33,479 nucleotides of DNA, taken from NCBI GenBank assembly GCA_964547085.1, contig CAZJMO010000002.1, positions 345 to 33,823 on the forward strand, read 5' to 3'. Source of the stretch: an uncultured Fibrobacteraceae bacterium. GTDB taxonomy: Bacteria > Krumholzibacteriota > Krumholzibacteriia > LZORAL124-64-63. Below, piece after piece: positions 7,837-21,287 of the stretch (positions within the stretch are counted from its first letter, which is position 1; each line of letters opens with the position of its first letter). The notes below the pieces were generated by a model that worked only from the letters and a program-made list of their open reading frames with translations, was not told the origin of the DNA and did not search any database. Both the position numbers and the translations under genes were made by a program.

Positions 7837-9204
7837 TTGCAAACCGTGCTGGTGGTGGACGACGAGATCGCGATCCGCGAAACGCTCGCCCAGATTCTCG
7901 GTTACGAGGATTATCGTGTGCTGACGGCGGCGTCGGGTCCGGAAGCCCTCGACCTGCTCGAAGAGCAGTCGGCCGACCTCGTTCTGCTGGATGTCAAGAT
8001 GCCCGGTATGGACGGCTTCGAGGTCCTGTCACGACTTCAGGAGCGACTTCCGGACCTGCCGGCCATCGTCATCTCCGGCCACGGCGACATCCAAACCGCC
8101 GTGCAGGCGGTCAAGCAGGGGGCGTACGACTTTCTCGAGAAGCCACTCGATCGGTCCCGTCTGCTGGTCACGATCCAGAATTGCCTGCGCCATCGCAGTA
8201 CCCTCGCCGACCGCGAGCGTCTGGCCGCGAAAGCCGGCAGGAGTACGCCCCTCATCGGTGGCTGTCCGGCGATGTGCGACGTGCGTGCTTTCATCGAGAA
8301 GGTGGCGCCTACCGAGTCGACGGTGCTGGTGACGGGGGAGAACGGGACCGGCAAGGAACTGGTGGTCGGTGCGCTCCACGCCGGCAGTCTGCGCCGGGAC
8401 GGACCGCTGGTCGAGGTCAACTGCGCCGCCATTCCCGGCGAACTGGTGGAGAGCGAACTGTTCGGTCACGAGAAGGGGGCGTTCACGGGTGCCGAACGGC
8501 TGCGGATCGGTAAGTTCGAACAGGCCAACGGCGGGACCCTCTTTCTCGACGAGATCGGCGACATGGGCGAGCAGGCCCAAGCCAAGGTGCTGCGCGCGGT
8601 CGAGGAGGGAACGATCCAGCGTGTCGGCGGCAGCGAGACGATGACCGTCGATGTCCGGATCGTGGCCGCCACCAATCACGATCTTTCCGACCCCGCCTCG
8701 GGCTTCCGCCGCGACCTGTTTTTCCGGCTCAATGTGCTGTCCATCCACATGCCGCCGCTCCGCGATCGTCCGGGAGATGTCGAATTGTTGCTCGATTTCC
8801 TCATGGACCAGCTTGCCGGCGCCATGAAGACCGAGCCGAAGACCTTTGCGCCGGAGACGCTGGGCCTGTTGAGGGAATACTCCTGGCCGGGCAATGTCCG
8901 CGAACTCCGCAACCTGGTCGAGCGTCTGTTGATCCTCGCGCCGGGGCCGATTGTCCGCCCGATCGACCTGCCGGTTCTTCCCGGAGCCGCGTCGGCGGCG
9001 CCCGAGGTTCCCGATCTTTTCCGCTGTGCCGATTTCCAGGAATTCAAATCCCGCGCGGAAGCCTTGTTCCTGCAACAAAAACTCCGGGAGCACCGTTACA
9101 ATGTGAGTCGAACGGCTGAGATCCTGGGTATGCAGCGCAGCAACCTCTACAAGAAGATCACCAAGTATGGGCTCCGGACCCAAGTCGAGGACGAACCGTC
9201 ATGA
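7837..9204 (+). CDS. Sigma-54-dependent response regulator (NtrC/AtoC family: receiver + AAA+ + Fis-type HTH)
   Basis: The TTG start is preceded by GAGGAGG. The receiver has LVLLDVKMPGMDG. The protein has Walker A GENGTGKE, a canonical GAFTGA loop (GHEKGAFTGAE), and the C-terminal HTH NVSRTAEILGMQRSNLYKKI. Confidence 0.9.
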   Translation: MQTVLVVDDEIAIRETLAQILGYEDYRVLTAASGPEALDLLEEQSADLVLLDVKMPGMDGFEVLSRLQERLPDLPAIVISGHGDIQTAVQAVKQGAYDFLEKPLDRSRLLVTIQNCLRHRSTLADRERLAAKAGRSTPLIGGCPAMCDVRAFIEKVAPTESTVLVTGENGTGKELVVGALHAGSLRRDGPLVEVNCAAIPGELVESELFGHEKGAFTGAERLRIGKFEQANGGTLFLDEIGDMGEQAQAKVLRAVEEGTIQRVGGSETMTVDVRIVAATNHDLSDPASGFRRDLFFRLNVLSIHMPPLRDRPGDVELLLDFLMDQLAGAMKTEPKTFAPETLGLLREYSWPGNVRELRNLVERLLILAPGPIVRPIDLPVLPGAASAAPEVPDLFRCADFQEFKSRAEALFLQQKLREHRYNVSRTAEILGMQRSNLYKKITKYGLRTQVEDEPS

Positions 9205-9727: not shown

Positions 9728-12700
9728 ATGGCTGATTTCGAAGGGTTTGACAGGGCGCCCCGTGGCCCCGACAGCATCCAGGGTTCCGACCTGGTCCAGG
9801 AGCTTGAGCGCCTGGAAGCGGTCGGCGATCTTCATTTCCATGCTGCGGCCTACACGACTGCCCTGGACTACTACGATCGCATCTTACCGGAGGAAGCACT
9901 GGCCCTCCTGGCGCCGGCGCATGCGTTGCAGGTGTTGCGCCACGCGCTGACCGCGTGTCTGCATCTCGGTTGGGCCGACCGTGCCGACCAGATGTTCGGT
10001 CGTGCCCGGACCTTCCTGGAGCACGCCGGCGATCTGGATTCCGAGGTCCGCGACTGCGAGCGTGCGCGATTCCAGGTTCGCCTCGCTGCTCTGCGCATGT
10101 TGCGCGGCGACTACCTGGCGGCCCTCGAGACGGCCAAACGGGCCTTCACTTTCCTGGCGCTGACCGACCAGCATGTCGAGGTCGCCAACCTCCAGCTCAC
10201 CATGGGAGCCTGCCACCAGCGTCTGGGACGCCTGGACAAGGCCGAGGAATTCTATCTGGACAGCCTCAGCACCTACCGCCGGGTCGAGGACGAGGCCGGC
10301 GTCGCGACGCTCTACAACGCGCTCGCCATGCTGCACAAGGCAGGCTGCCGCTGGGACAAGGCGCTGTCGCTGCTCGACAAGGCGATCGACCTCGCCGAGC
10401 GGAACGGCGCGCCGCAGCTCCTGTCCTGGTTCCATCTGAACCAGGGCATCATCATGACCAAGGTCAGCCGGTTCGCCGAGGCCCGCCTCGCGCTGGAACG
10501 GAGCCTGCGCCTCTGCAAGAGTCTCGGCGACCGTATTCGTGAACCGAAGGTTTTGCTCGCTCTGGGGCGCCTGGACATGCTGACCGGGCGGCTGGCCCGG
10601 GCCGAGGAGAACATCCTTGCCAGCCAGGTGCTGACCGCGCGGGAGCGCATGAAGCGTGAGGCCGTGATCGCCGACGAGTATCTCGGAGATGTGATGCTCG
10701 CGCGCGGTGACTGGGAAACGGCGCTGGCCAGCTACGAGATGGGACTGGAGCAGACGCGGTCGATCGGTCGGCCCAGCGATGTGGAGGGCGAGTTGCTGAG
10801 ACGTCGGGCGGAGGCCCGGCGAAGGGCCGGCGATCTTTCGGAGGCCGTGGCCGACGCGCACGCCGCCGTCGCGGTCTGCGAAACGTGCAGTGAGGACTAC
10901 GAACTGGGCTTCTGCCACCTGACGCTGGGCGAGGCCTACGCCGCCAGCGAGGACTGGTCACAGGCAGATCACCACTTCCGCGAGGCCGTGGACAAATTCC
11001 AGTCCCAGAACCTCCTTCGTGAGTGGTGCGACGCGGTCTGCACGTTCATGGAAGTGCGTCTGGCGTCGGCCGACAAGCCGATGCTCCTGCTGCTGCGGCG
11101 GCTTTTGCTCGACGTCCAGGACCATGCGGCGGCCAGCGTGAGCGACGAGTCTCTCGCATCTTGCCTGTCGGGGCTGGCCAGGGTGCAGCTTCGTCTCGGG
11201 CTTTGCGACGACGCGCTGCTGACCGTGTTCGAACTCGAACGCGTCGCCCGTGGACTCGAGGACGACGCGCGGTTGCGGGATGTGGCTGGATTACGCCATC
11301 TCGTCGACGCGGGGCTCGTTGGTAGCCTGGACCTGGCGGAATCGCCGGTCCGCGCCATCACCGGGATTCCCGGCCTTTTCCGCTCCAACGACGCCAGTCT
11401 GACCCGCCATCTGGACGCGGTGCTGATGGCGACCTGTGAGCGTGCCCACGCCAACTGCGGGTTCATCGCGCTCGGGGATCCGGCGACGGCCGATCCGGTG
11501 GACATCGCCGCGCGCCAGGACGTGAGCGAGAACCTCGCGGATCAGCTTGTGCAGTGGTATGCCGGCCGCGCCGAAGATCGCTTGGCGCCGCTGTTCTACA
11601 GCCGACTCGGCGAACAAGCCCCGCTTTTCGACCAGGTTCCGGCGCTTCGGGGTCGGGCTGATGGTTGTCTCTTCATGCCGCTGACTGTGCATTCGCGTCG
11701 ACTCGGCGTGTTGTTCCTCGGGATCTCCAGCGACGATTCCGCGGGATCCGTGGTCGACCAGTCCACACTGGACTTCCTGGCCAACTATCTGGGATTCCTG
11801 TCCTTGTTCCTGGCCGAGAAAGCACCGGGCGCGTCGCGGGCGCTGGATGTCATGCCGGACAATGAGGGCTTCGGCAACATCATCACCTGCAACGAGGGCA
11901 TGCTCGAGATGCTTGCGCTCGTACGCAAGGTCGCCAGTAGCGATCTGACCGTGCTGCTCCGCGGCGAAACAGGCACCGGCAAGGGCATGATCGCCTATGC
12001 CCTGCACCGCCTCAGCCCGCGTGCCGAAGGGCGTTTCCAGTCGATCAACTGCGCCGCGATCCCTGAAACACTGCTCGAGAGCGAACTCTTCGGTCACGTC
12101 AAGGGCTCTTTCACCGGCGCCGACAGCGACAAGAAGGGGCTGCTGCTCGAGGCCGAGGGCGGCACGGTCTTCCTCGACGAGATCGGGAAGATGCCGCTCG
12201 CGATGCAGGGCAAGCTCCTGCACTTCCTGGATACCCGTGTGGTGCGCCCGGTCGGCTCGGCGCAGGAACGTCATGTGGATGTGCGGATCGTCTGCGCCAG
12301 CAAGGCGGACCTGAACAGCCTCGTACAGGGCGACCGCTTCCTGGAGGATCTCTACTTCCGCCTCCTCGATTTCCCGCTCGTCGTGCCGCCTCTGCGGGAC
12401 CGCGCCGACGATATCCCGTTGCTGGCCCACCATTTCCTGCAGAAGTACGGTGACGAGTTGGGTGGCCACGTCCCCGAACTGGAGTCGGATGTGCTGGACG
12501 CGCTCGTCCAATACGATTGGCCGGGCAATATCCGGGAACTCGAAAAGTGCTTGAAACGGGGCCTCGTGCTCGCGCAAGGCGAGGACCGGCTGCGCCCCGA
12601 ACACCTACCGCGGGAACTGACCCCCTACTTGGCGGCCAGCGATCGCCGGGGTGTCACGCCGTTGCGCGAGACTCTGGCGGCCGTCGAGTCCCGCGAGATC

Positions 12701-12808
12701 ACGCAGGCGCTCAAGGTCTGCCGGGGCAACAAATCCGCCGCGGGCCGGATGCTGCAGATCAGTTATCCGAGTTTGCTCAAGAAGATCAAGCTCTACGGGC
12801 TGACCTGA
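9728..12808 (+). CDS. Large sigma-54 enhancer-binding protein: N-terminal TPR repeats + GAF-like domain + AAA+ + Fis-type HTH
   Basis: The first ~450 aa are TPR-like repeats (e.g. [32 protein letters not shown]). The GAF-like block is CGFIALGD...[19 protein letters not shown]. The AAA+ module has Walker A GETGTGKG and the loop variant GSFTGA ([11 protein letters not shown]). The C-terminal HTH is [20 protein letters not shown]. Confidence 0.85.
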
Positions 12809-13751: not shown

Positions 13752-13767
13752 TGGCACGATGCGTGCG
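13752..13767 (+). promoter_or_regulatory. Candidate sigma-54 (-24/-12) promoter P2 for the lipoprotein operon
   Basis: TGGCACGatgcgTGCg has GG at 13753-13754 and GC at 13765-13766, a 12-nt offset. It lies ~45 nt upstream of the ATG at 13812. Confidence 0.55.
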
Positions 13768-13811: not shown

Positions 13812-14801
13812 ATGAAGGCGAAGACGCGACACGAAACGGTGACAGGGGTGGTGATCGGCTTGCTGACACTCCTTCTGCTGCTTCTGGCCACTGGATGCGA
13901 CGAGGAAGAAGATTGCGTCACGTGTGTCGAGGCTCCGCCGGTGGCTCCGACCCAGGTCTACTCCGTGAGTGGGGACGGTCGGATCACGGTTTTCTGGAAC
14001 GACTACCCCGAAATCTACGGCGACGATGTCCGTGGCTACCGGATCTGGAGCCGGTATTTCGTGGATGGCGACCAGAACGATCCCGCCCGGGAGTTCTACC
14101 TCATGGACGAGGTGGCCGTCGGCCAGAATTACGATGCCGACACGGGGCAGTACTACTACATCGACACCGATGTCGAGAACGCCGTGGACTATGAATATGC
14201 CGTCAGCGCGTTCTCCGATCATGGCGACAGCTATCTGAGCTTCGAGTTCGTGGTGGACACGCCGCTGCCCATGAGCGAGACCCCGCTCACACTTTTCGAT
14301 GTCGCTGGCCCTGCCGCCCAACTCTCCGGTTTCGATTTCAGCGTTGCCAGCGAGCACGGGGGCGGGAGCGGCAACGGATCCGAAGGCATCGTGGATCCGC
14401 GGGCCGTGGGCACCACGGCGGATATCCAGATCCGTTTCGACGAGAACGGCGTGCCGTGGCTCGAGACGCTCCGCGGCGAAGTCCACGTGCAGGACTCCGG
14501 GACCTTCCTCGACGCCGACGGCGGACTGTACTTCGAGGGCGTCTCGTGGGCGCCGGAGTTCGGCTGGTCGTCGAGCGGCGTCCTGGAAATGATCCGCGGA
14601 CACATCTACGTCGTCGAGATCTACGACGAACTCGTGGACGACGACATCCACTACGCCAAGTTGGGCGTCACGAACATCGACGCGTCCGCCGGTACGGTCA
14701 GGATCATGTGGGCGTATCAACTCGTCAACGGTCTGCCCGAACTGTCGCCTCCCGAGGCGCGCGGAGGCGACAACGACGATATCCAGGCCATCCGGCTCTA
14801 G
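13812..14801 (+). CDS. Hypothetical lipoprotein with FN3-like domain
   Basis: The RBS GGGAAGGAG lies upstream. The signal peptide has a lipobox-like LLLLATG|C. An FN3-like segment (VYSVSGDGRITVFWNDYP...GYRIWSRY...YYYIDTDVENAVDYEYAVSAF) is followed by an unassigned beta-rich domain. Confidence 0.7.
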   Translation: MKAKTRHETVTGVVIGLLTLLLLLLATGCDEEEDCVTCVEAPPVAPTQVYSVSGDGRITVFWNDYPEIYGDDVRGYRIWSRYFVDGDQNDPAREFYLMDEVAVGQNYDADTGQYYYIDTDVENAVDYEYAVSAFSDHGDSYLSFEFVVDTPLPMSETPLTLFDVAGPAAQLSGFDFSVASEHGGGSGNGSEGIVDPRAVGTTADIQIRFDENGVPWLETLRGEVHVQDSGTFLDADGGLYFEGVSWAPEFGWSSSGVLEMIRGHIYVVEIYDELVDDDIHYAKLGVTNIDASAGTVRIMWAYQLVNGLPELSPPEARGGDNDDIQAIRL

Positions 14802-14839: not shown

Positions 14840-16531
14840 ATGGACACCATCAACAGGCGCACGAGGACCGCTCCGGTGTTTGCGTCCGTCCTGGCTGTGT
14901 GGGCCTTTCTGACCCTGGTTTCCGGTGCCATGGCTCAGGTGCCGGCGGAAACTCAGCCGAACGCAGTCGACCATTACCGGGATCAGAGCCTGCGCGTGAG
15001 CCTCTGGCTCAACAAGGACGCCGACCAGATCTTCAAGCGCGGCGAGCAGTTGCAGGTGACGTTCCAAACCAACGAGGACGCCTACGCCGTTCTCTACCGC
15101 ATCGACGTGGAGGGCCGGGTCGATATCCTCTGGCCGACGAGCCGATACAGCGACGGGTTCGTCTTCGGCGGGCACCAGTACCGCCTGCCGTCGACAGAAG
15201 GGCCGAAGCTCCGGATCGGCGACGGCGAGGGCATGGGTTACGTCCAGGCCGTTGTGTCGCGTTATCCCTTCGACCTGCGCGATCTCGAGGTCGACTTCCA
15301 TCACGAGAATGATCAGGGCGAGTTCGGGTTCTACGTCGCGGGGGATCCGTTCCTGGCGATGAACGAGGTCAACTACGCGGTGACCGGTCTCGAGGACGCC
15401 AGCGAGATGGTGGTGACCAACTACGTCAACTACTACGTGCATCGGAAGGTCGATCACCCGCGGTTCCTCTGTTACCAGTGCCACGACGACGCCGACGGTT
15501 ACCAGCCCTACAGCGACACCTGCACCGTGGAGATCCATTACGACCACGGCTGGCAGAACGACTGGTGGGTCAGCTACGGCTTCTACCCGGCCTACTACTA
15601 CCCGACGTACTACTACATCGATCCCTGGACGCGCGCGCGCTGGGTGAACTACTGGTACGACCCCTGGTACAGTTGGCCGTCCGTCTACTCGCACAGGTGG
15701 GATTACCAGTGCTACGACTGGCACCATTCGCCCCACTGGCGTCAAGACAGCTACACCGCCTACAAGCACGGGAATCGTCGTTACCGTCCGCTGGACAAGG
15801 ACTCGCTGATTCGTTCGCGGACCGTGCTCACGACGCGCTCCAAGAATGTCCTGGTCACCGGTAAGAGTCCCGGGGACGAGCGGATCCGCCGGATGAAGGA
15901 CCGCGAGGTGACCAGCCGGACCGACGACCGGACGCGGGACGGCAGCACCACCGCCCTGGACAGGACCAGGATTCCGGCCGGCGGCACCGCCCTGCGCAAC
16001 GTCTCGCCGGTGACGCGTTCGCAGACCCGCTTCGAGCAGAACAACCGGATCCGCACCTCGCCCGGTCTGCGCGTGCCGGGTTCGGGCGAGACCGACGGCG
16101 GGGTGTCTCGGACATCGCAGTCACGATTGCGGACCGGGACCGTTCGCAGCGGATCCTCCGGCACGACCACGCGGACCGAAAGCCGACGATCGGCGGACAG
16201 TCGCGAGACCATCAAGCCGGTGGAGTCCCGACGTGATCAAGGACGCGTCTGGACCAACCGGCGCAGTTCCAGTTCGGCGAACACGAGGCAGTCGACATCG
16301 CCGACGAGGACGGTAAAGCCGGTTTCCCGCAATTCGCGGTCGTCCGGCAGCAGTTCCGGAGAGTCGTCGGGAGGCACCTCGGTGCAGCGCCCGACCAAGA
16401 CGCCGCAACAGATCAAGCAGACGACGCCCGCTCGGTCGGGCAGCAGCACGAGCAGCAAGAGCGGTGAGAGCGGCAAGAGCAGCGGGACCTCGAGCAGTCG
16501 AGGCACCAAGAGCTCGGGAGGTCGTCGCTAG
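14840..16531 (+). CDS. Secreted DUF4384-domain protein with Trp/Tyr-rich block and long Arg/Ser/Thr-rich tail
   Basis: The RBS is GAGGAGGAAGG and the signal peptide is ...FLTLVSGAMAQ. The DUF4384-like core is LRVSLWLNKDADQIFKRGEQLQVTFQTNEDAYAVLYRIDVEGRVDILWP. The frame keeps high GC3 through the low-complexity tail. Confidence 0.7.
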   Translation: MDTINRRTRTAPVFASVLAVWAFLTLVSGAMAQVPAETQPNAVDHYRDQSLRVSLWLNKDADQIFKRGEQLQVTFQTNEDAYAVLYRIDVEGRVDILWPTSRYSDGFVFGGHQYRLPSTEGPKLRIGDGEGMGYVQAVVSRYPFDLRDLEVDFHHENDQGEFGFYVAGDPFLAMNEVNYAVTGLEDASEMVVTNYVNYYVHRKVDHPRFLCYQCHDDADGYQPYSDTCTVEIHYDHGWQNDWWVSYGFYPAYYYPTYYYIDPWTRARWVNYWYDPWYSWPSVYSHRWDYQCYDWHHSPHWRQDSYTAYKHGNRRYRPLDKDSLIRSRTVLTTRSKNVLVTGKSPGDERIRRMKDREVTSRTDDRTRDGSTTALDRTRIPAGGTALRNVSPVTRSQTRFEQNNRIRTSPGLRVPGSGETDGGVSRTSQSRLRTGTVRSGSSGTTTRTESRRSADSRETIKPVESRRDQGRVWTNRRSSSSANTRQSTSPTRTVKPVSRNSRSSGSSSGESSGGTSVQRPTKTPQQIKQTTPARSGSSTSSKSGESGKSSGTSSSRGTKSSGGRR

Positions 16532-16662
16532 GACATCGATGTGTGTTGGAGGCTTTTCCCCCCATCTTCCTGGTCGGAAGGGACGTTCCGGATCCTCGCG
16601 AAGGTTGGCACCAGAGGACGGGTGAAGGAAGGGAACAGAAGGCCGGGGGCCCTCAACACGAC

Positions 16663-16727
16663 GGAAGGGTCTCGGACAAATATTGTTGTCGATCAGGGGT
16701 GGCAATAACAGCGTCCGGGACCCTTCC
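16663..16727 (+). repeat. Long inverted repeat or stem-loop in the DUF4384 / M6-like intergenic region
   Basis: GGAAGGGTCTCGGAC (16663-16677) pairs with GTCCGGGACCCTTCC (16713-16727) at 15 positions, one being T/G. The ~35-nt loop contains a further 5-bp helix TATTG/CAATA. Confidence 0.6.
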
Positions 16728-16733
16728 CGAAAT
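16724..16733 (+). promoter_or_regulatory. Repeat motif copy 3: TTCCCGAAAT
   Basis: The exact 9-mer TTCCCGAAA overlaps the 3' arm of the inverted repeat. It lies ~26 bp upstream of the candidate -35 at 16759. Confidence 0.4.
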
Positions 16734-16758
16734 CACCGGCCGGCGACGGGGTCACAAA

Positions 16759-16787
16759 TTGACCCCGGACCTGGCCGCAGCTATGAT
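16759..16787 (+). promoter_or_regulatory. Candidate sigma-70-type promoter (TTGACC-17 nt-TATGAT) for the M6-like gene
   Basis: The -35 is at 16759-16764 and the -10 at 16782-16787, with a 17-nt spacer. It lies ~50 nt upstream of the ATG at 16836. Confidence 0.4.
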
Positions 16788-16835
16788 ACGCGGCGTTCGC
16801 GTCCACTCTCTCGTCCTATCCGGAAGGTCGCAAGA

Positions 16836-19800
16836 ATGAAGACATGGTCGGCGTGCCTCTGGACTTGCCTCTTGCTCGCCTGGACCTTGCCTGCCACGGC
16901 GATCGTTCCAGCCGCGGGATGGGATCCCTGGTCCCAGGCTCTCGACAAGGCTGCTGATCCGGTCGCCCTGTCCGACATCATGGCTCGGTTGCAGGTCCAG
17001 GCCCGACCCCTGCTGACGGACTGCTCGCGTGCGGTGCAACGGGCCCGCATCGACGGCCTGAAGGCGCCCGGATCCCTGGCGGCCGTCGCGATTCTGGTCG
17101 ATTTCGCCGACACATGCTTCTACGGCCGCGAGGACGAGTTCACGGGGCCGCTGCCCACGTCCGGCCAGAGCGACTTCTACTACGCGGCGCACGACGCCCT
17201 CTACTACGACCACCTCCTGCACGACGTCGGTGATTTCTTCGACGCCGCCAGCGCGGGGCGTTTCGACCTGGATTACGCCGTGCACCCGACGATCCTCGGA
17301 CTCGACGAGGGCATGGCGCATTACGGCAACCATCCCGAGAACGGTGAGCAGTCCGTGCTGCTGGCCGCCGACGCGATCGCCCGGCTGGACGCTGAGATCG
17401 ACTTCTCGCTCTATGACACCGTGCTGCTGATCCACGCCGGAGCCGGCGAGGAAACCGATGTCCTCGACGACTCGCCCGAGCAGATCTACAGCACGTACCT
17501 CGGGCCGGAGGACTTCGTCACCGCGATGGAGGATTCGATCCTCGACCAGCCGTACATCCCGACCGACGACTTCCCTGTCGGCGAGGGCGTACGGCACGTG
17601 CTGATCCTGCCGGAGATCCAGTTCCAGGACGCCTTCCCGGGCTTCAGCGGGAAATACGGTTCGCTCGGCACGTACTGCTTCGAGGTCGGGCTGCGGTTGG
17701 GGATGCTGTCGCTCACGGACTTCACGCCGTCCGGATCGCCGGACAGCCAGGGGATCGGACAGTTCGGGCTCATGGGCTACGGTCTGTTCACGGCCGGCGG
17801 ATTCATTCCGCCCCAGCCGTGCGCCTTCAACAAGCTGCTCATGGGGTGGCTCGACCCGCAGCCGGTGGACCCGGCGTCGGCAGCGACGTGGACACTGCAT
17901 CCGTCCGAGTTCCCCGACCACCCCGAGGCGGCCGCCCGCGTGGACCTCACCGGCTCCGAGTACTTCCTGCTCGAGTACCGGCTGCAGGATCCCGACGGCA
18001 ACGTCATCTTCAGCTTCGACGGCGATCTCAACGGGAACAATACGCCAGATTTCTACGACACCAGCAACGCCGAGAACGGCGGCCGACCGGCCGGTTTCTT
18101 CGACCCCGCCGAGGACATCCGCGAGTGGCTCACCGGAGCCGAGTGGGACTTCTTCGTCAGTGACAACGATGCGCGCGAGGACGGCGTCAAGGGGGCCGGC
18201 AGCGGGCTCTACGTCTGGCACATCGACGAGGGCGTGATCCGAGACGCCTTCGCCCAGGAACGCAACGTCTTCAACGCCGATCCGTCCCGGAAGTCGGTGG
18301 ACCTGGAGGAGGCCGACGGCATTCAGGATCTCGACACCCGCGAGCCGTCGCTGTTCTGGCTCGGTGGCGACGACGACAGTTTCCGCGCCGAGGACAACGC
18401 CGTCTTCGGACCGGACACGCGGCCGGACACACGCACCAACGGCGGCGTCCGCACCGGACTGGTGCTCGACGAGATCAGCGCCGTGGTGGTGGACTCGGTC
18501 CATGTCTTCGACGCCGGGACGCCGGACGAGCGCACCGGGATCCGCTACGCCGAGACCATGACGTTTCGTTGCCGCCGCGACACGGACCCGTTCGGCGTGG
18601 CCATCCGGACGGCGTCACGCGATCTGTCCGGCGTGGATCTGACCGGCAGCCATCTGTTGGCGGCCCCGCTGGCCGGCGGCGCCCAGAGCGAGCAGGTGAT
18701 CGTGGCCGCGGCCGATTCGGGGCGCGTCTACGCCCTCGATTTCGACCTGCTGGAGTGGGTCGACCACGACGGCGACCCCGCGACCGTGGAACCGTTGACC
18801 GTCGGCACCGATGACGCCGGCGCGCCTGTGACGTGGTTCCTGCCGGGCTGCGCAGGACCGGTGGGCACGGACGATGCGGGCCTCGAGATCGTGCTGAGCT
18901 CGCCGTCGGGCGTCTACGCCTTCGACCAGATCGGGGCGCCGCTCGCCGAGGGGCCGGGCGGCACGGCGCGCGGCCGCATCGCCGACGTGACGGCCGTATC
19001 GGCGCCGATTCTGTTGCCGTGGGGCAGCGGCGAGGCGGATCTGGATCCCGCGGTCATCTGCGTCGGCACAGTGAACACCGAAGTGGTCGGAGCCCCGACC
19101 ATGCTGCGATTCCTCGACGCGACCGGCGCCGAGGTCCATCCCGCCGTGAGCCTGGGTGGTGCGATCCAGGGCACGCCCGTCCGCCTGGACCGGATGCTCT
19201 ACGTGCCGGTCATCGCGCCGAACGCCACGGGTGCCCTGGCGGCCGTCACCTGTTTGCAGGTGGGCGACCCCGCGCTGGCATGGTCGGTGCCGCTCGATCT
19301 GTTGCCGGCCGACGTGCCGCCGCTGGTCACCGCGAACGCCGTGGTTGTCCGGGATGTCGACGGCAGGGCGCAGACCGTTTCGATCACGGGTGTGGATCCG
19401 GTCGTGGAACCGCTCTGGCCGGCGGACATCGTGGTCGGGACCGCCATGGGGCCGGGAGGGACATTCATCGGGAACGGCCGGTTCGGGCGCAGTGGCCCCG
19501 AGGCGGCCTGGCTGCTGGGCTGGCCGCGTCGCCCGTTGCCGGCGATCCAGGTCGGACAGGCGCAACCGCTCGCGCTGGGGTTGGATACGGCGCCGACTGG
19601 TTTCCTCTTCGCGAGCCGCGACGGTCGCCTGTTCCTGTGCGGGGCGGACGGTGCGGTGCGCCCCGGCTGGCCCATCGCCGGGCCCGCCGATGCGATGGCG
19701 ACTCCGGTGCTGGTCGAGCCGTGGGATTCGGTCGAGGGGCTGGCGACGCTCATGCTCGCGGCGGCCGGCACCACCCCGGTCGTCACCGGTGTCGACGCCG

Positions 19801-20231
19801 ATGCGGAGGCGTTGCAGACGCGCGCGGTGGCTCACCTCCAGGTGTTCCAGATCGGCGTTCCGTCGGAGTATTCGTTGGCCAGGGGCGCGTCCATGTACGG
19901 TGGCGGTCCTTGGCGGGGGGCGGTCGGCATATACGACGGGACCGCGCCGGCGGACGACGTGTCGCTGGAAGACACCCACGTCTGCTATCCTCAGCCGCTG
20001 ACCGACGCGGAACTGCACGTGCGCGGACGGGCGCCGGAGACGGGGGGCGCCAGAGTCGTGGTCGTCAATCTCCAGGGCGAGGTCGTGCGGGATTCCGGGA
20101 CGCTCGCTGTCGACGGCGGCGCGGTGTTCGAGTTCGTCATCGATATGCGGGATGTCGCGTCCGGTGTTTATCTCTGCAAGCTGCAGGCCGGAGGTCGGAC
20201 GAGCGTGCAGACGATCGCCGTGGCGCACTAG
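16836..20231 (+). CDS. M6 (immune inhibitor A)-like domain protein lacking HExxH, with repeat region and T9SS C-terminal sorting domain
   Basis: The start is set at the internal Met with signal peptide MKTWSACLWTCLLLAWTLPATA and RBS GGAAGG. M6-like blocks are VLLIHAGAGEE, GIGQFGLMGYG, AFNKLLMGWL, LYVWHIDEG and VDLEEADG. The zinc site reads FEVGL instead of HExxH. The C-terminus (CYPQPL...VVVVNLQGEVV...ASGVYLCKLQAGGRTSVQTIAV) resembles a T9SS type A / FlgD-Ig-like sorting domain. Confidence 0.8.
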   Translation: MKTWSACLWTCLLLAWTLPATAIVPAAGWDPWSQALDKAADPVALSDIMARLQVQARPLLTDCSRAVQRARIDGLKAPGSLAAVAILVDFADTCFYGREDEFTGPLPTSGQSDFYYAAHDALYYDHLLHDVGDFFDAASAGRFDLDYAVHPTILGLDEGMAHYGNHPENGEQSVLLAADAIARLDAEIDFSLYDTVLLIHAGAGEETDVLDDSPEQIYSTYLGPEDFVTAMEDSILDQPYIPTDDFPVGEGVRHVLILPEIQFQDAFPGFSGKYGSLGTYCFEVGLRLGMLSLTDFTPSGSPDSQGIGQFGLMGYGLFTAGGFIPPQPCAFNKLLMGWLDPQPVDPASAATWTLHPSEFPDHPEAAARVDLTGSEYFLLEYRLQDPDGNVIFSFDGDLNGNNTPDFYDTSNAENGGRPAGFFDPAEDIREWLTGAEWDFFVSDNDAREDGVKGAGSGLYVWHIDEGVIRDAFAQERNVFNADPSRKSVDLEEADGIQDLDTREPSLFWLGGDDDSFRAEDNAVFGPDTRPDTRTNGGVRTGLVLDEISAVVVDSVHVFDAGTPDERTGIRYAETMTFRCRRDTDPFGVAIRTASRDLSGVDLTGSHLLAAPLAGGAQSEQVIVAAADSGRVYALDFDLLEWVDHDGDPATVEPLTVGTDDAGAPVTWFLPGCAGPVGTDDAGLEIVLSSPSGVYAFDQIGAPLAEGPGGTARGRIADVTAVSAPILLPWGSGEADLDPAVICVGTVNTEVVGAPTMLRFLDATGAEVHPAVSLGGAIQGTPVRLDRMLYVPVIAPNATGALAAVTCLQVGDPALAWSVPLDLLPADVPPLVTANAVVVRDVDGRAQTVSITGVDPVVEPLWPADIVVGTAMGPGGTFIGNGRFGRSGPEAAWLLGWPRRPLPAIQVGQAQPLALGLDTAPTGFLFASRDGRLFLCGADGAVRPGWPIAGPADAMATPVLVEPWDSVEGLATLMLAAAGTTPVVTGVDADAEALQTRAVAHLQVFQIGVPSEYSLARGASMYGGGPWRGAVGIYDGTAPADDVSLEDTHVCYPQPLTDAELHVRGRAPETGGARVVVVNLQGEVVRDSGTLAVDGGAVFEFVIDMRDVASGVYLCKLQAGGRTSVQTIAVAH

Positions 20232-20348: not shown

Positions 20349-21287
20349 ATGCGGAACAAGACCATCATCACGGGCGTCGCGCTGCTCGGCCTGCTCGCCC
20401 TGATCCTGCCCACCGCCGCTGCTGCCGGCGGCAGTCCCGGCGACGCCGGGTTGCTCTTCCTCCGCCTCGGCATGGGCGCCCGGGAAGCCGCGATGGGCGG
20501 CACCGGAGTGGCGTCCGCCGAAGGCGCTGCGGCGGCGTACTGGAACCCGTCGCGCCTGGCCTTCACGCCTCCGGGCACCGAAGTCCTGGTCCAGCAGCAA
20601 TCGTGGCTCGGCACGTTCGACTACACCGCCGCTGCGCTGGCCCACCACGGGGATTTCGGCGTCATCGGCCTGACCGTCGCGGGTTTCTTCTCCGAGGAGA
20701 TCGAGCGTTACGGCAGCGATGCGGTCGGCGTCTCCGAGGGCACGTTCTCGCCGTACGACCTGGCGTTCGGCGTGAGCTACTCGCGTGCCTTCGGCGAGGA
20801 GTTCGCCATCGGTGCGCAGGCCAAGCTCGTCTACGAGAAGATCGACATCTACAGCGGTTCGGTGGCGTTGTTCGACATCTTCGCCTCCTGGCGCCTGAAG
20901 CACCTGCCGGGAATCAGCCTGGGCGTCAGCGCGACCAACTTCGGCGGCCAGATGACCGTCAACGAGGAACCGTTCGACGCGCCGCAGACCGTCACCGTAG
21001 GCGGTGCCTGGACCATGCAGAACGGTCCGCTGGCCGACCGCGTCACCCTGGCGGCGGATGTCGGGTTCTACAACGACGCGAACGAGAAGGCGCATCTCGG
21101 CGGCGAATTCAAACTGGTGCCGGAACTGGCGCTGCGGCTGGGCTACAAGGTGAACTACGAGAAACAGGGTTTGACCGCGGGCGCGGGTTTCCGGCACGAG
21201 AACTTCGGGATCGGTTATGCCTATGAGGACATCACTGACGACGCCTTCGATCCCGGGCATCGGTTCTCGCTGGAGTTCTTCTTCTAG
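20349..21287 (+). CDS. PorV/PorQ-family outer-membrane beta-barrel protein
   Basis: It has a signal peptide. The N-terminal motif LLFLRLGMGAREAAMGGTGVASAEGAAAAYWNPSRLA is typical of PorV/PorQ-like proteins. Amphipathic beta strands alternate, and the C-terminus is aromatic (...LEFFF). Confidence 0.7.
   Translation: MRNKTIITGVALLGLLALILPTAAAAGGSPGDAGLLFLRLGMGAREAAMGGTGVASAEGAAAAYWNPSRLAFTPPGTEVLVQQQSWLGTFDYTAAALAHHGDFGVIGLTVAGFFSEEIERYGSDAVGVSEGTFSPYDLAFGVSYSRAFGEEFAIGAQAKLVYEKIDIYSGSVALFDIFASWRLKHLPGISLGVSATNFGGQMTVNEEPFDAPQTVTVGGAWTMQNGPLADRVTLAADVGFYNDANEKAHLGGEFKLVPELALRLGYKVNYEKQGLTAGAGFRHENFGIGYAYEDITDDAFDPGHRFSLEFFF

Follow-up and report, generated by a model that had tools for sequence, protein, structure and literature searches.

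What could a protein still do that keeps the fold of a peptidase and has lost every ligand of the catalytic zinc? The question is raised by a gene located in a 33,479-nucleotide stretch of contig CAZJMO010000002.1 (assembly GCA_964547085.1, positions 345 to 33,823, forward strand), the whole of which is here called the window. Its genome was deposited as an uncultured Fibrobacteraceae bacterium and is placed by GTDB in the phylum Krumholzibacteriota. The gene encodes P0001, a protein of 1131 amino acids (aa) comprising an M6-like protease domain, a beta-propeller and a probable type A C-terminal sorting domain (CTD) for a type IX secretion system (T9SS), and its 3' neighbour encodes an outer-membrane barrel of the PorV/PorQ family. 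On the evidence given below, part of it analogy with a known attachment complex, P0001 is on balance probably a surface-docked, non-catalytic binding or scaffold partner of this barrel, linked to the T9SS.

The former zinc site and its fold

The open reading frame runs from 16683 to 20231 on the forward strand with the ATG at 16836, and it is unbroken across the 1131 codons of P0001. The parts of the gene are listed here by their positions in the window (HMM, hidden Markov model).

16836..20231, + strand: gene of P0001, M6-like pseudo-protease with propeller and CTD, 1131 aa (Met1 nearly invariant among orthologs)
16836..16904, + strand: putative Sec-type signal peptide (MKTWSACLWTCLLLAWTLPATA...), boundary approximate (from the sequence; low pLDDT in the model)
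17058..18515, + strand: M6/InhA-like metzincin-fold domain, aa 75-560 (HMM, hhalign and fold match; best-conserved part)
17661..17699, + strand: former active-site helix, aa 276-288 (DSSP on AlphaFold models)
17679..17693, + strand: FEVGL, aa 282-286, in the HExxH columns (profile alignments)
17709..17711, + strand: S292, at the position of the third zinc ligand, the Asp of HExxHxxGxxD (invariant family-wide)
17772..17774, + strand: M313 in GLMGYG, candidate Met-turn methionine (invariant; active paralogs have the Met of G(I/L)G..(G)LM in this column)
18216..18233, + strand: WHIDEG motif, aa 461-466 (kept in dead and active M6-propeller proteins alike)
18297..18335, + strand: acidic motif VDLEEADGIQDLD, aa 488-500 (nearly invariant superfamily-wide; low-confidence model)
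18528..19955, + strand: eight-bladed beta-propeller, about aa 565-1040, BamB/YxaL-like (AlphaFold model, PDB fold matches)
19968..20231, + strand: T9SS type A CTD, aa 1045-1131, with the stop codon (sub-cut-off HMMs, model, paralog identity)

The codons at 17679-17693 are ttc gag gtc ggg ctg, read as F-E-V-G-L. The preliminary description of this locus, made from the sequence alone, took this pentapeptide for the HExxH motif of an M6 peptidase with both histidines replaced and the glutamate retained. The blocks that it quoted as typical of the family (VLLIHAGAGEE, GIGQFGLMGYG, AFNKLLMGWL, LYVWHIDEG and VDLEEADG) are all found in the translation, and the dipeptide HE, hence HExxH, has zero occurrences across the 1131 aa. 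The column assignment was tested in three ways (phmmer, hhalign and AlphaFold models) and is based on paralogs L001-L003 and hhalign. Five M6 paralogs with intact HExxH were identified in the window's own genome (2.8 Mb, 290 contigs), and against such intact paralogs phmmer places GTYCFEVGLRLGMLSLTD...SQGIGQFGLMGYG on GVFCHEYGHVLGLPDLYD...SSGIGEYGLMSGG. The comparison of the family profile with the own-genome paralogs by hhalign (probability 99.9%, E 1.5e-33) gives the identical register. A register taken from pairwise BLAST and hmmalign against the active paralog on contig C47, described below, was rejected, the HExxH region being mis-registered.

In both accepted alignments F282 lies on His1, E283 on the catalytic Glu and L286 on His2 of HExxH, while the third zinc ligand, the Asp of HExxHxxGxxD, is replaced by S292. 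The site of P0001 reads F-E-V-G-L-R-L-G-M-L-S, where the Glu is the sole residue kept of HExxHxxGxxD. The proposed placement of FEVGL is therefore upheld and so is the replacement of both His ligands by Phe and Leu, although the count of two lost ligands was incomplete, as the third is gone too. The Glu is present as claimed but dispensable: 7 of 121 orthologs have Val in its place, and Gln is found there when the locus is compared in other families. Because Phe, Leu and Ser fill all three ligand positions, it can be inferred that the protease domain of P0001 cannot bind the catalytic zinc and that the protein is a pseudoenzyme.

The affiliation to M6 is supported by three kinds of comparison. 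The NCBIfam model of the M6 domain, TIGR03296, gives 54.9 bits with P0001 (cut-off 110.8, E 1.2e-14); PF05547 gave no match at E<=1 in Pfam, and PDB sequence searches with P0001 or the family profile gave nothing relevant. The full-length AlphaFold model (pLDDT 84.4, pTM 0.82) shows an alpha/beta domain to about aa 560, with FEVGL borne by helix 276-288, and an all-beta region at about aa 565-1010 whose best PDB matches are 8-bladed propellers such as BamB, YxaL and BBS9. The full-length fold search was dominated by beta-propellers, and the N-terminal domain was modelled alone (aa 62-562; pLDDT 83.2, pTM 0.89) to recover InhA. At the top of its Foldseek matches in the PDB is the M6 prototype, immune inhibitor A2, with four chains (4yu6/4yu5; E 4e-10 to 8e-9, best E 4.4e-10, prob 1.00, TMq 0.53), followed by the metzincin-type peptidases OgpA/Amuc_1438, ADAMTS and fragilysin. 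Because of these best matches and of the metzincin-type peptidases that come next, the predicted fold of the N-terminal domain is that of M6. The homology to M6/InhA stated in the preliminary description agrees with the TIGR03296, hhalign and 4yu6 results. The segment aa 471-510 was modelled with low confidence.

The tail of P0001 is its sole Pfam match (Por_Secre_tail, PF18962, 21.2 bits, cut-off 27), and the NCBIfam model of the T9SS tail, TIGR04183, gives 21.9 bits (cut-off 23). A C-terminal beta-sandwich was modelled at aa 1049-1129, the CTD is 40% identical to that of the C47 paralog, and PF18962 is present in P0001 homologs; because of these three observations the tail is considered probably real though weak by HMM. 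Matches to FG-GAP/VCBS families of Pfam were identified on the propeller in some homologs.

Conservation in the phylum and position in the superfamily

A homolog search across 5.8 billion proteins returned 594 relatives, the best 120 of which were analysed (42-61% identity, about 1100-1200 aa; where named, from Krumholzibacteriia or Krumholzibacteriota). HExxH was found in none of the 120. In the 121-sequence alignment F282 and L286 are identical in every member, down to 42% identity, which excludes a sequencing error, and E283 is Glu in 114. Along with F282 and L286, the residues S292, C281, G289, M290, D295 and M313 are invariant or nearly so, and C-F-E-V-G-L-x-L-G-M-L-S-L-x-D is a motif with hardly any variation. 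Compared with the query, the mean identity amounts to 63% in the M6 domain (invariant columns 18%), 87% in the segment 275-316 that includes the former active site, 35% in the propeller (invariant columns 2.7%) and 42% in the CTD (invariant columns 6.9%). The dead M6 domain, and within it the region of the former active site, is the most constrained part of P0001, a pattern that marks a retained function and not decay.

Of 101 genomes that sample the GTDB phylum, 91 have one copy of the gene (E<=1e-60), and 8 of the 10 genomes without a match belong to one family, f2. The locus was also examined in eight genomes from six other families of the phylum, where the gene row is identical in all eight loci. 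The site reads FEFGL in family f6, HEIGQ in f3, FELGN and FELAS in f5, YQFAK in f7, FEIGS in f8 and HQIGS in f2; the column of the third ligand is occupied by Pro, but by Ser in f6 and f2. The scaffold is kept in these families: G-x-Y/W-C/A precedes the site, Gly occupies +3, R-L-G-M/L follows the site and Asp is found at +13. A complete zinc site (HExxH...D) was found at the P0001 locus in none of the lineages examined. The ligand positions therefore drift between families while the flanking scaffold remains constant, and the inactivation dates to near the base of the phylum. The two residues shared by all 121 members and the lack of HExxH at this locus elsewhere in the phylum describe a conserved pseudoenzyme and not a recent loss, a choice that the preliminary description had left to the orthologs.

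Many records of metagenome-assembled genomes (MAGs) with the Krumholzibacteriota-type locus are labelled 'uncultured Fibrobacteraceae', and single ones 'Gemmatimonadales' or 'Latescibacterota' (for example L018, L021, L023 and L029). The taxonomic labels of those records look unreliable.

The wider superfamily was covered by an exhaustive HMMER search with the M6 domain, which at E<=0.001 gave 1804 representatives of clusters. A length of 1000-1200 aa is typical of the 150 best, and among these 150 the site is intact (HEFGH...D), changed in the third ligand (HEFGH...T) or deprived of the catalytic Glu (HQFGH...T). The degenerate states are HMTGR, HEVGQ, HQxxS, FEVGS, YQVGL and FEVGL, with LMFGF and ILFGS in addition. 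The intermediate states suggest a stepwise and repeated inactivation. One clade (P0166, P0177, P0178, P0203, P0211 and others) comprises HEFGH with Asp changed to Thr, or HQFGH with Glu changed to Gln, both His being kept.

WHIDE and VDLEEADGIQDLD are nearly invariant in dead and active members, beyond the conservation of the zinc site (representatives P0122-P0265). These motifs may be a candidate for an unrecognised metal- or partner-binding site.

The best NCBIfam match of P0001 is the equivalog NF052323, 'T9SS-dependent M6-like inactivated metalloprotease' (T9SSA_dep_M6i, E 2.9e-50). The score is 171.2 bits for a cut-off of 600, aligning aa 75-550 with profile positions 38-535 of 1043, and 152.8 bits in a six-frame search. 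The LMFGF/ILFGS group, which has no Glu, is at or near the cut-off (P0229, 598 bits; P0247, 539 bits). In a FastTree phylogeny of the M6 domain, midpoint-rooted with an uncertain root and weak deeper nodes, the P0001 clade has a support of 1.00 and lies within a 0.99 clade along with the YQVGL, FEVGS, HQxxS and HEVGQ groups. The NF052323-like group (P0229, P0247) forms a separate 0.99 clade, and intact-HExxH lineages lie between the two. Membership of P0001 in NF052323 was rejected both on score (171 against 600 bits) and on the tree. Because intact-site lineages separate the two clades, at least three independent losses of the zinc site are needed whatever the root, and P0001 is an independently inactivated lineage beside NF052323, from which it differs in barrel partner and gene order. 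Within the M6-propeller-CTD architecture a single branch is covered by NF052323: this kind of protein is already curated, and the P0001 lineage is set apart by its clade, its barrel partner and its gene order. Literature searches gave no paper on NF052323, and none on Krumholzibacteriota with T9SS, a T9SS pseudoprotease or an M6 family with PorV.

The barrel, the neighbourhood and the active paralog

The P0001 gene and its barrel gene belong to a co-oriented row of four genes, and the features around P0001 are the following.

20349..21287, + strand: PorV/PorQ-family outer-membrane barrel, 312 aa (NF033709, 162 bits, cut-off 90)
14840..16531, + strand: secreted DUF4384 protein, 563 aa, upstream (syntenic in 72 of 80 loci)
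13812..14801, + strand: putative lipoprotein, 329 aa, no family match, first of the co-oriented row (syntenic in 66 of 80 loci)
16759..16787, + strand: sigma-70-like promoter match TTGACC-17-TATGAT, 10/12, 49 nucleotides (nt) 5' of the ATG (consensus match only)

The 80 loci were taken from public genomes that are Krumholzibacteriota or Krumholzibacteriia by name or are mislabelled, and 12 of them stop at a contig edge downstream. The barrel gene lies directly 3' of the P0001 gene in all 68 loci with a downstream flank, and it is likewise adjacent in the eight loci of the six other families. The prediction of terminators gave no candidate site in the interval that separates the two genes. The barrel of the window scores 85.8 bits with the PorQ model and 69.2 bits with the PorV model, both below the cut-offs. 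Syntenic genes upstream also include a sigma-54 activator; those downstream of the barrel encode a metallophosphoesterase, which is on the opposite strand, as well as HtrA, a sigma-70 factor and an M23 peptidase.

A sequence at 13752-13767, TGGCACGATGCGTGCG, resembles a sigma-54 -24/-12 element 45 nt 5' of the gene of the 329-aa lipoprotein, and two genes of sigma-54 enhancer-binding proteins (7837-9204 and 9728-12808) come directly before it. The sigma-54 promoter pattern has 15 matches window-wide where 10 are expected, which is not significant. About 250 aa at the C-terminus of the DUF4384 protein form a tail with a high content of Ser, Thr, Arg and Gly; the protein itself is conserved at this position across the phylum.

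A second M6-propeller-CTD protein, of 1140 aa, was identified on contig C47 of the same genome (C47:92-6985; L005, L010, L101), in a row formed by porU (cut by the contig end), a PorV-family barrel and the M6 gene. This protein keeps HEFGHAMGLPD and is 26% identical to P0001 over the M6 domain. Its barrel gives 178 bits with NF033709, 104 bits with the PorV model and 61 bits with the PorQ model. By coordinates, at least 16 further genomes within the phylum share the layout of porU, a barrel-sized gap and M6, and HExGHxxGxxD is kept in the 12 orthologs of the C47 protein that were retrieved. The two paralogs are alike in architecture, in their similar length and in adjoining a PorV-family barrel, whereas the C47 protein differs in its intact zinc motif, in the upstream and PorV-leaning barrel and in its linkage to porU.

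P0001 as a replacement of the PorU sortase was rejected, as 39 of 41 genomes in the phylum have PorU above the cut-off and C47 carries porU-porV. The cut-off of the PorZ N-terminal propeller, PF21544, was reached in none of 21 genomes of the phylum, the Bacteroides control being positive. The PorV family is above the cut-off five times in the window's own genome. Further barrels of the PorV/PorQ family over the cut-off are C139:1838-2638, which comes after a CTD-type match on the same contig; C88:5846-6667, inside a 686-aa open frame that runs into a long Ala/Glu/Arg-rich stretch; and C258:3949-4905, which leans to NF052325 'PorV2' (131 bits). Two more are below it (C106:4945-5745 and C182:1950-2813).

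In other clades of the superfamily a PorV-family barrel adjoins the M6 gene in all six loci examined. In the sister-clade loci L113-L116 the barrel is downstream and closer to the window barrel (32-38% identity) than to the C47 PorV (27-28%). At the NF052323-type locus it is upstream and nearer to the C47 PorV (154 bits) than to the window barrel (66 bits). The barrel subtype follows the M6 subtype. NF052323 (L117) shares with P0001 the M6-like domain without HExxH, the propeller, the T9SS type A CTD and the adjoining PorV-family barrel; it differs in that its barrel is of the porU-linked PorV type and upstream, whereas that of P0001 is downstream and of a different subtype.

Function, alternatives and known systems

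According to the reading preferred here, P0001 would be exported by Sec and then sorted by the T9SS via its type A CTD, and this CTD would keep it at the cell surface, docked on its own barrel. In that place P0001 would belong to an envelope module linked to the T9SS, as a subunit for binding or scaffolding without catalysis, with a ligand bound by the zinc-less cleft, the propeller or both, and it would work alongside the active M6-propeller-CTD paralog encoded in the porU-porV row. The scaffold around the former cleft is under the strongest purifying selection in P0001, and the cleft probably persists as a surface for binding rather than as a site of catalysis. Where a pseudoenzyme is better conserved than its active relatives, it usually points to an unstudied binding or scaffolding function.

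Several observations weigh against this scheme. The docking of P0001 on the barrel is proposed on the analogy with Porphyromonas gingivalis only, and the CTD that would mediate it is below the cut-offs of both PF18962 and TIGR04183. The lean of the window barrel to PorQ over PorV is small, its scores being far below the equivalog cut-offs. The region from the sigma-54 activator to the HtrA, sigma-70 and M23 genes is syntenic phylum-wide, and the adjacency of the P0001 and barrel genes alone could reflect a general conservation of gene order. Because an unusually long spacer of 304 nt (16532-16835) and the promoter-like site precede the P0001 gene, the row of four genes may be more than one transcript, with P0001 possibly transcribed apart from the two upstream genes. 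Finally, the low-confidence model of the conserved acidic motif at aa 488-500 leaves room for a second metal or catalytic site.

The rival that deserves most attention, possible though not probable, is an ordinary T9SS cargo: P0001 would be an adhesin or a binding protein of the cell surface whose protease domain is dead, would be released or lipid-anchored as other CTD proteins are, and would have no special tie to the barrel. The signal peptide and CTD of P0001 would fit such a cargo, and the genome encodes dozens of CTD proteins (over 40 CTD-type matches); adhesins often contain propeller and FG-GAP domains, and with the entire neighbourhood syntenic the adjacency of the barrel may be passive. 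Adhesins, however, usually evolve fast and vary in copy number, whereas the P0001 gene is single-copy in nine tenths of the genomes sampled and its dead domain is its most conserved part. The pairing of M6-propeller protein and barrel also recurs at C47, L117 and L118, where the other neighbours differ, and the barrel subtype tracks the M6 subtype. The earlier view of P0001 as a secreted, surface-attached T9SS cargo is probably right as far as the T9SS tail is concerned, weak as this is by HMM, but P0001 is unlike ordinary cargo in being single-copy, phylum-wide and tied to its own barrel.

Dead enzyme paralogs often act as regulators, and P0001 could be a decoy, inhibitor or activator of the active porU-porV-linked paralog, binding its substrates or its pro-form. 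Both paralogs have the same architecture and coexist in the same genomes, and the cleft scaffold is conserved; the two genes are unlinked, though, each with its own barrel partner, and families f5 and f8 have the dead gene yet no match to the active paralog at E<=1e-20, which leaves a regulatory role quite unlikely. Hardly any weight is given to an enzyme that works through another site or chemistry, either the acidic cluster of WHIDEG and VDLEEADGIQDLD or E283 with a different metal. Both motifs are more conserved superfamily-wide than the zinc site, and E283 is kept in most of the family, but Phe, Leu and Ser cannot bind zinc and E283 gives way to Val in 7 orthologs and to Gln in other families. 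The acidic motifs are common to zinc-competent paralogs, suggesting a structural or calcium-binding role, and the Pfam and NCBIfam searches revealed no match to another catalytic family. The chance of an artefact, be it an error of sequencing or assembly or a recently decaying pseudogene, is close to nil: nothing specific speaks for it beyond the origin of the window in a fragmented MAG (290 contigs, 85% complete), and the frame is intact over its whole length, 120 homologs, which come from independent assemblies, carry identical substitutions and purifying selection is strong.

If the pairing of P0001 with its barrel is functional, it would be a new accessory T9SS module in uncultured FCB-group phyla, and the active, half-dead and dead versions would offer a natural series to probe the role of the M6 scaffold. 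If it is not, a well-documented case of repeated catalytic-site loss in one architecture remains. To our knowledge, what is known of T9SS attachment comes almost entirely from Porphyromonas and Flavobacterium, neither of which uses such a protein. A wider reading, which must be called doubtful, is that M6-propeller-CTD proteins with their own PorV/PorQ-family barrels are undescribed subunits of the T9SS apparatus for secretion and attachment outside Bacteroidia. Krumholzibacteriota would then have two modules, an active one in the porU-porV row and a dead one with the PorQ-like barrel, the latter replacing PorZ-PorQ, a pair not detected in the phylum. Were this true, the zinc-less cleft or the propeller would bind, on behalf of the PorU sortase, either the linker of the cargo or the glycolipid that anchors it, and the repeated independent loss of the zinc site would mean that the ancestral job of the scaffold was binding and not proteolysis.

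Among known systems, the catalytic-domain fold of P0001 is shared with MEROPS M6/InhA (4YU5, 4YU6). Both proteins contain HAGxGxE, the Gly at +3 of HExxH, LG...D after the helix, GIG..GLM (the candidate Met-turn), WH(I/V)D and (V/L)E(E/Q)ADG. Unlike InhA, P0001 has all three zinc ligands replaced, is below the cut-off of TIGR03296 and has no match to PF05547, and it carries in addition a beta-propeller and a T9SS CTD in a host that belongs to a Gram-negative FCB-group phylum.

The second system is the T9SS of P. gingivalis, where PorU docks on PorV and PorZ on PorQ (PMC8545088, PMC10947112, PMC12365241). PorZ-PorQ and PorU-PorV resemble P0001 and its barrel in comprising a large CTD-bearing surface protein with a propeller that is encoded with, or bound to, a barrel of the PorV/PorQ family; the P0001 pair is known here from gene adjacency, its physical interaction being only a deduction. 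PorZ is characterised by a retained CTD docked on a PorQ barrel and by the binding of A-LPS, to which the adjacency of the P0001 gene to a PorQ-leaning barrel gene is the one parallel seen here. P0001 has no sequence similarity to PorZ and no Pfam match to PF21544. PorZ is non-catalytic, as is predicted for P0001, and contains two propellers and no protease-fold domain, whereas P0001 combines one propeller with an M6 fold.

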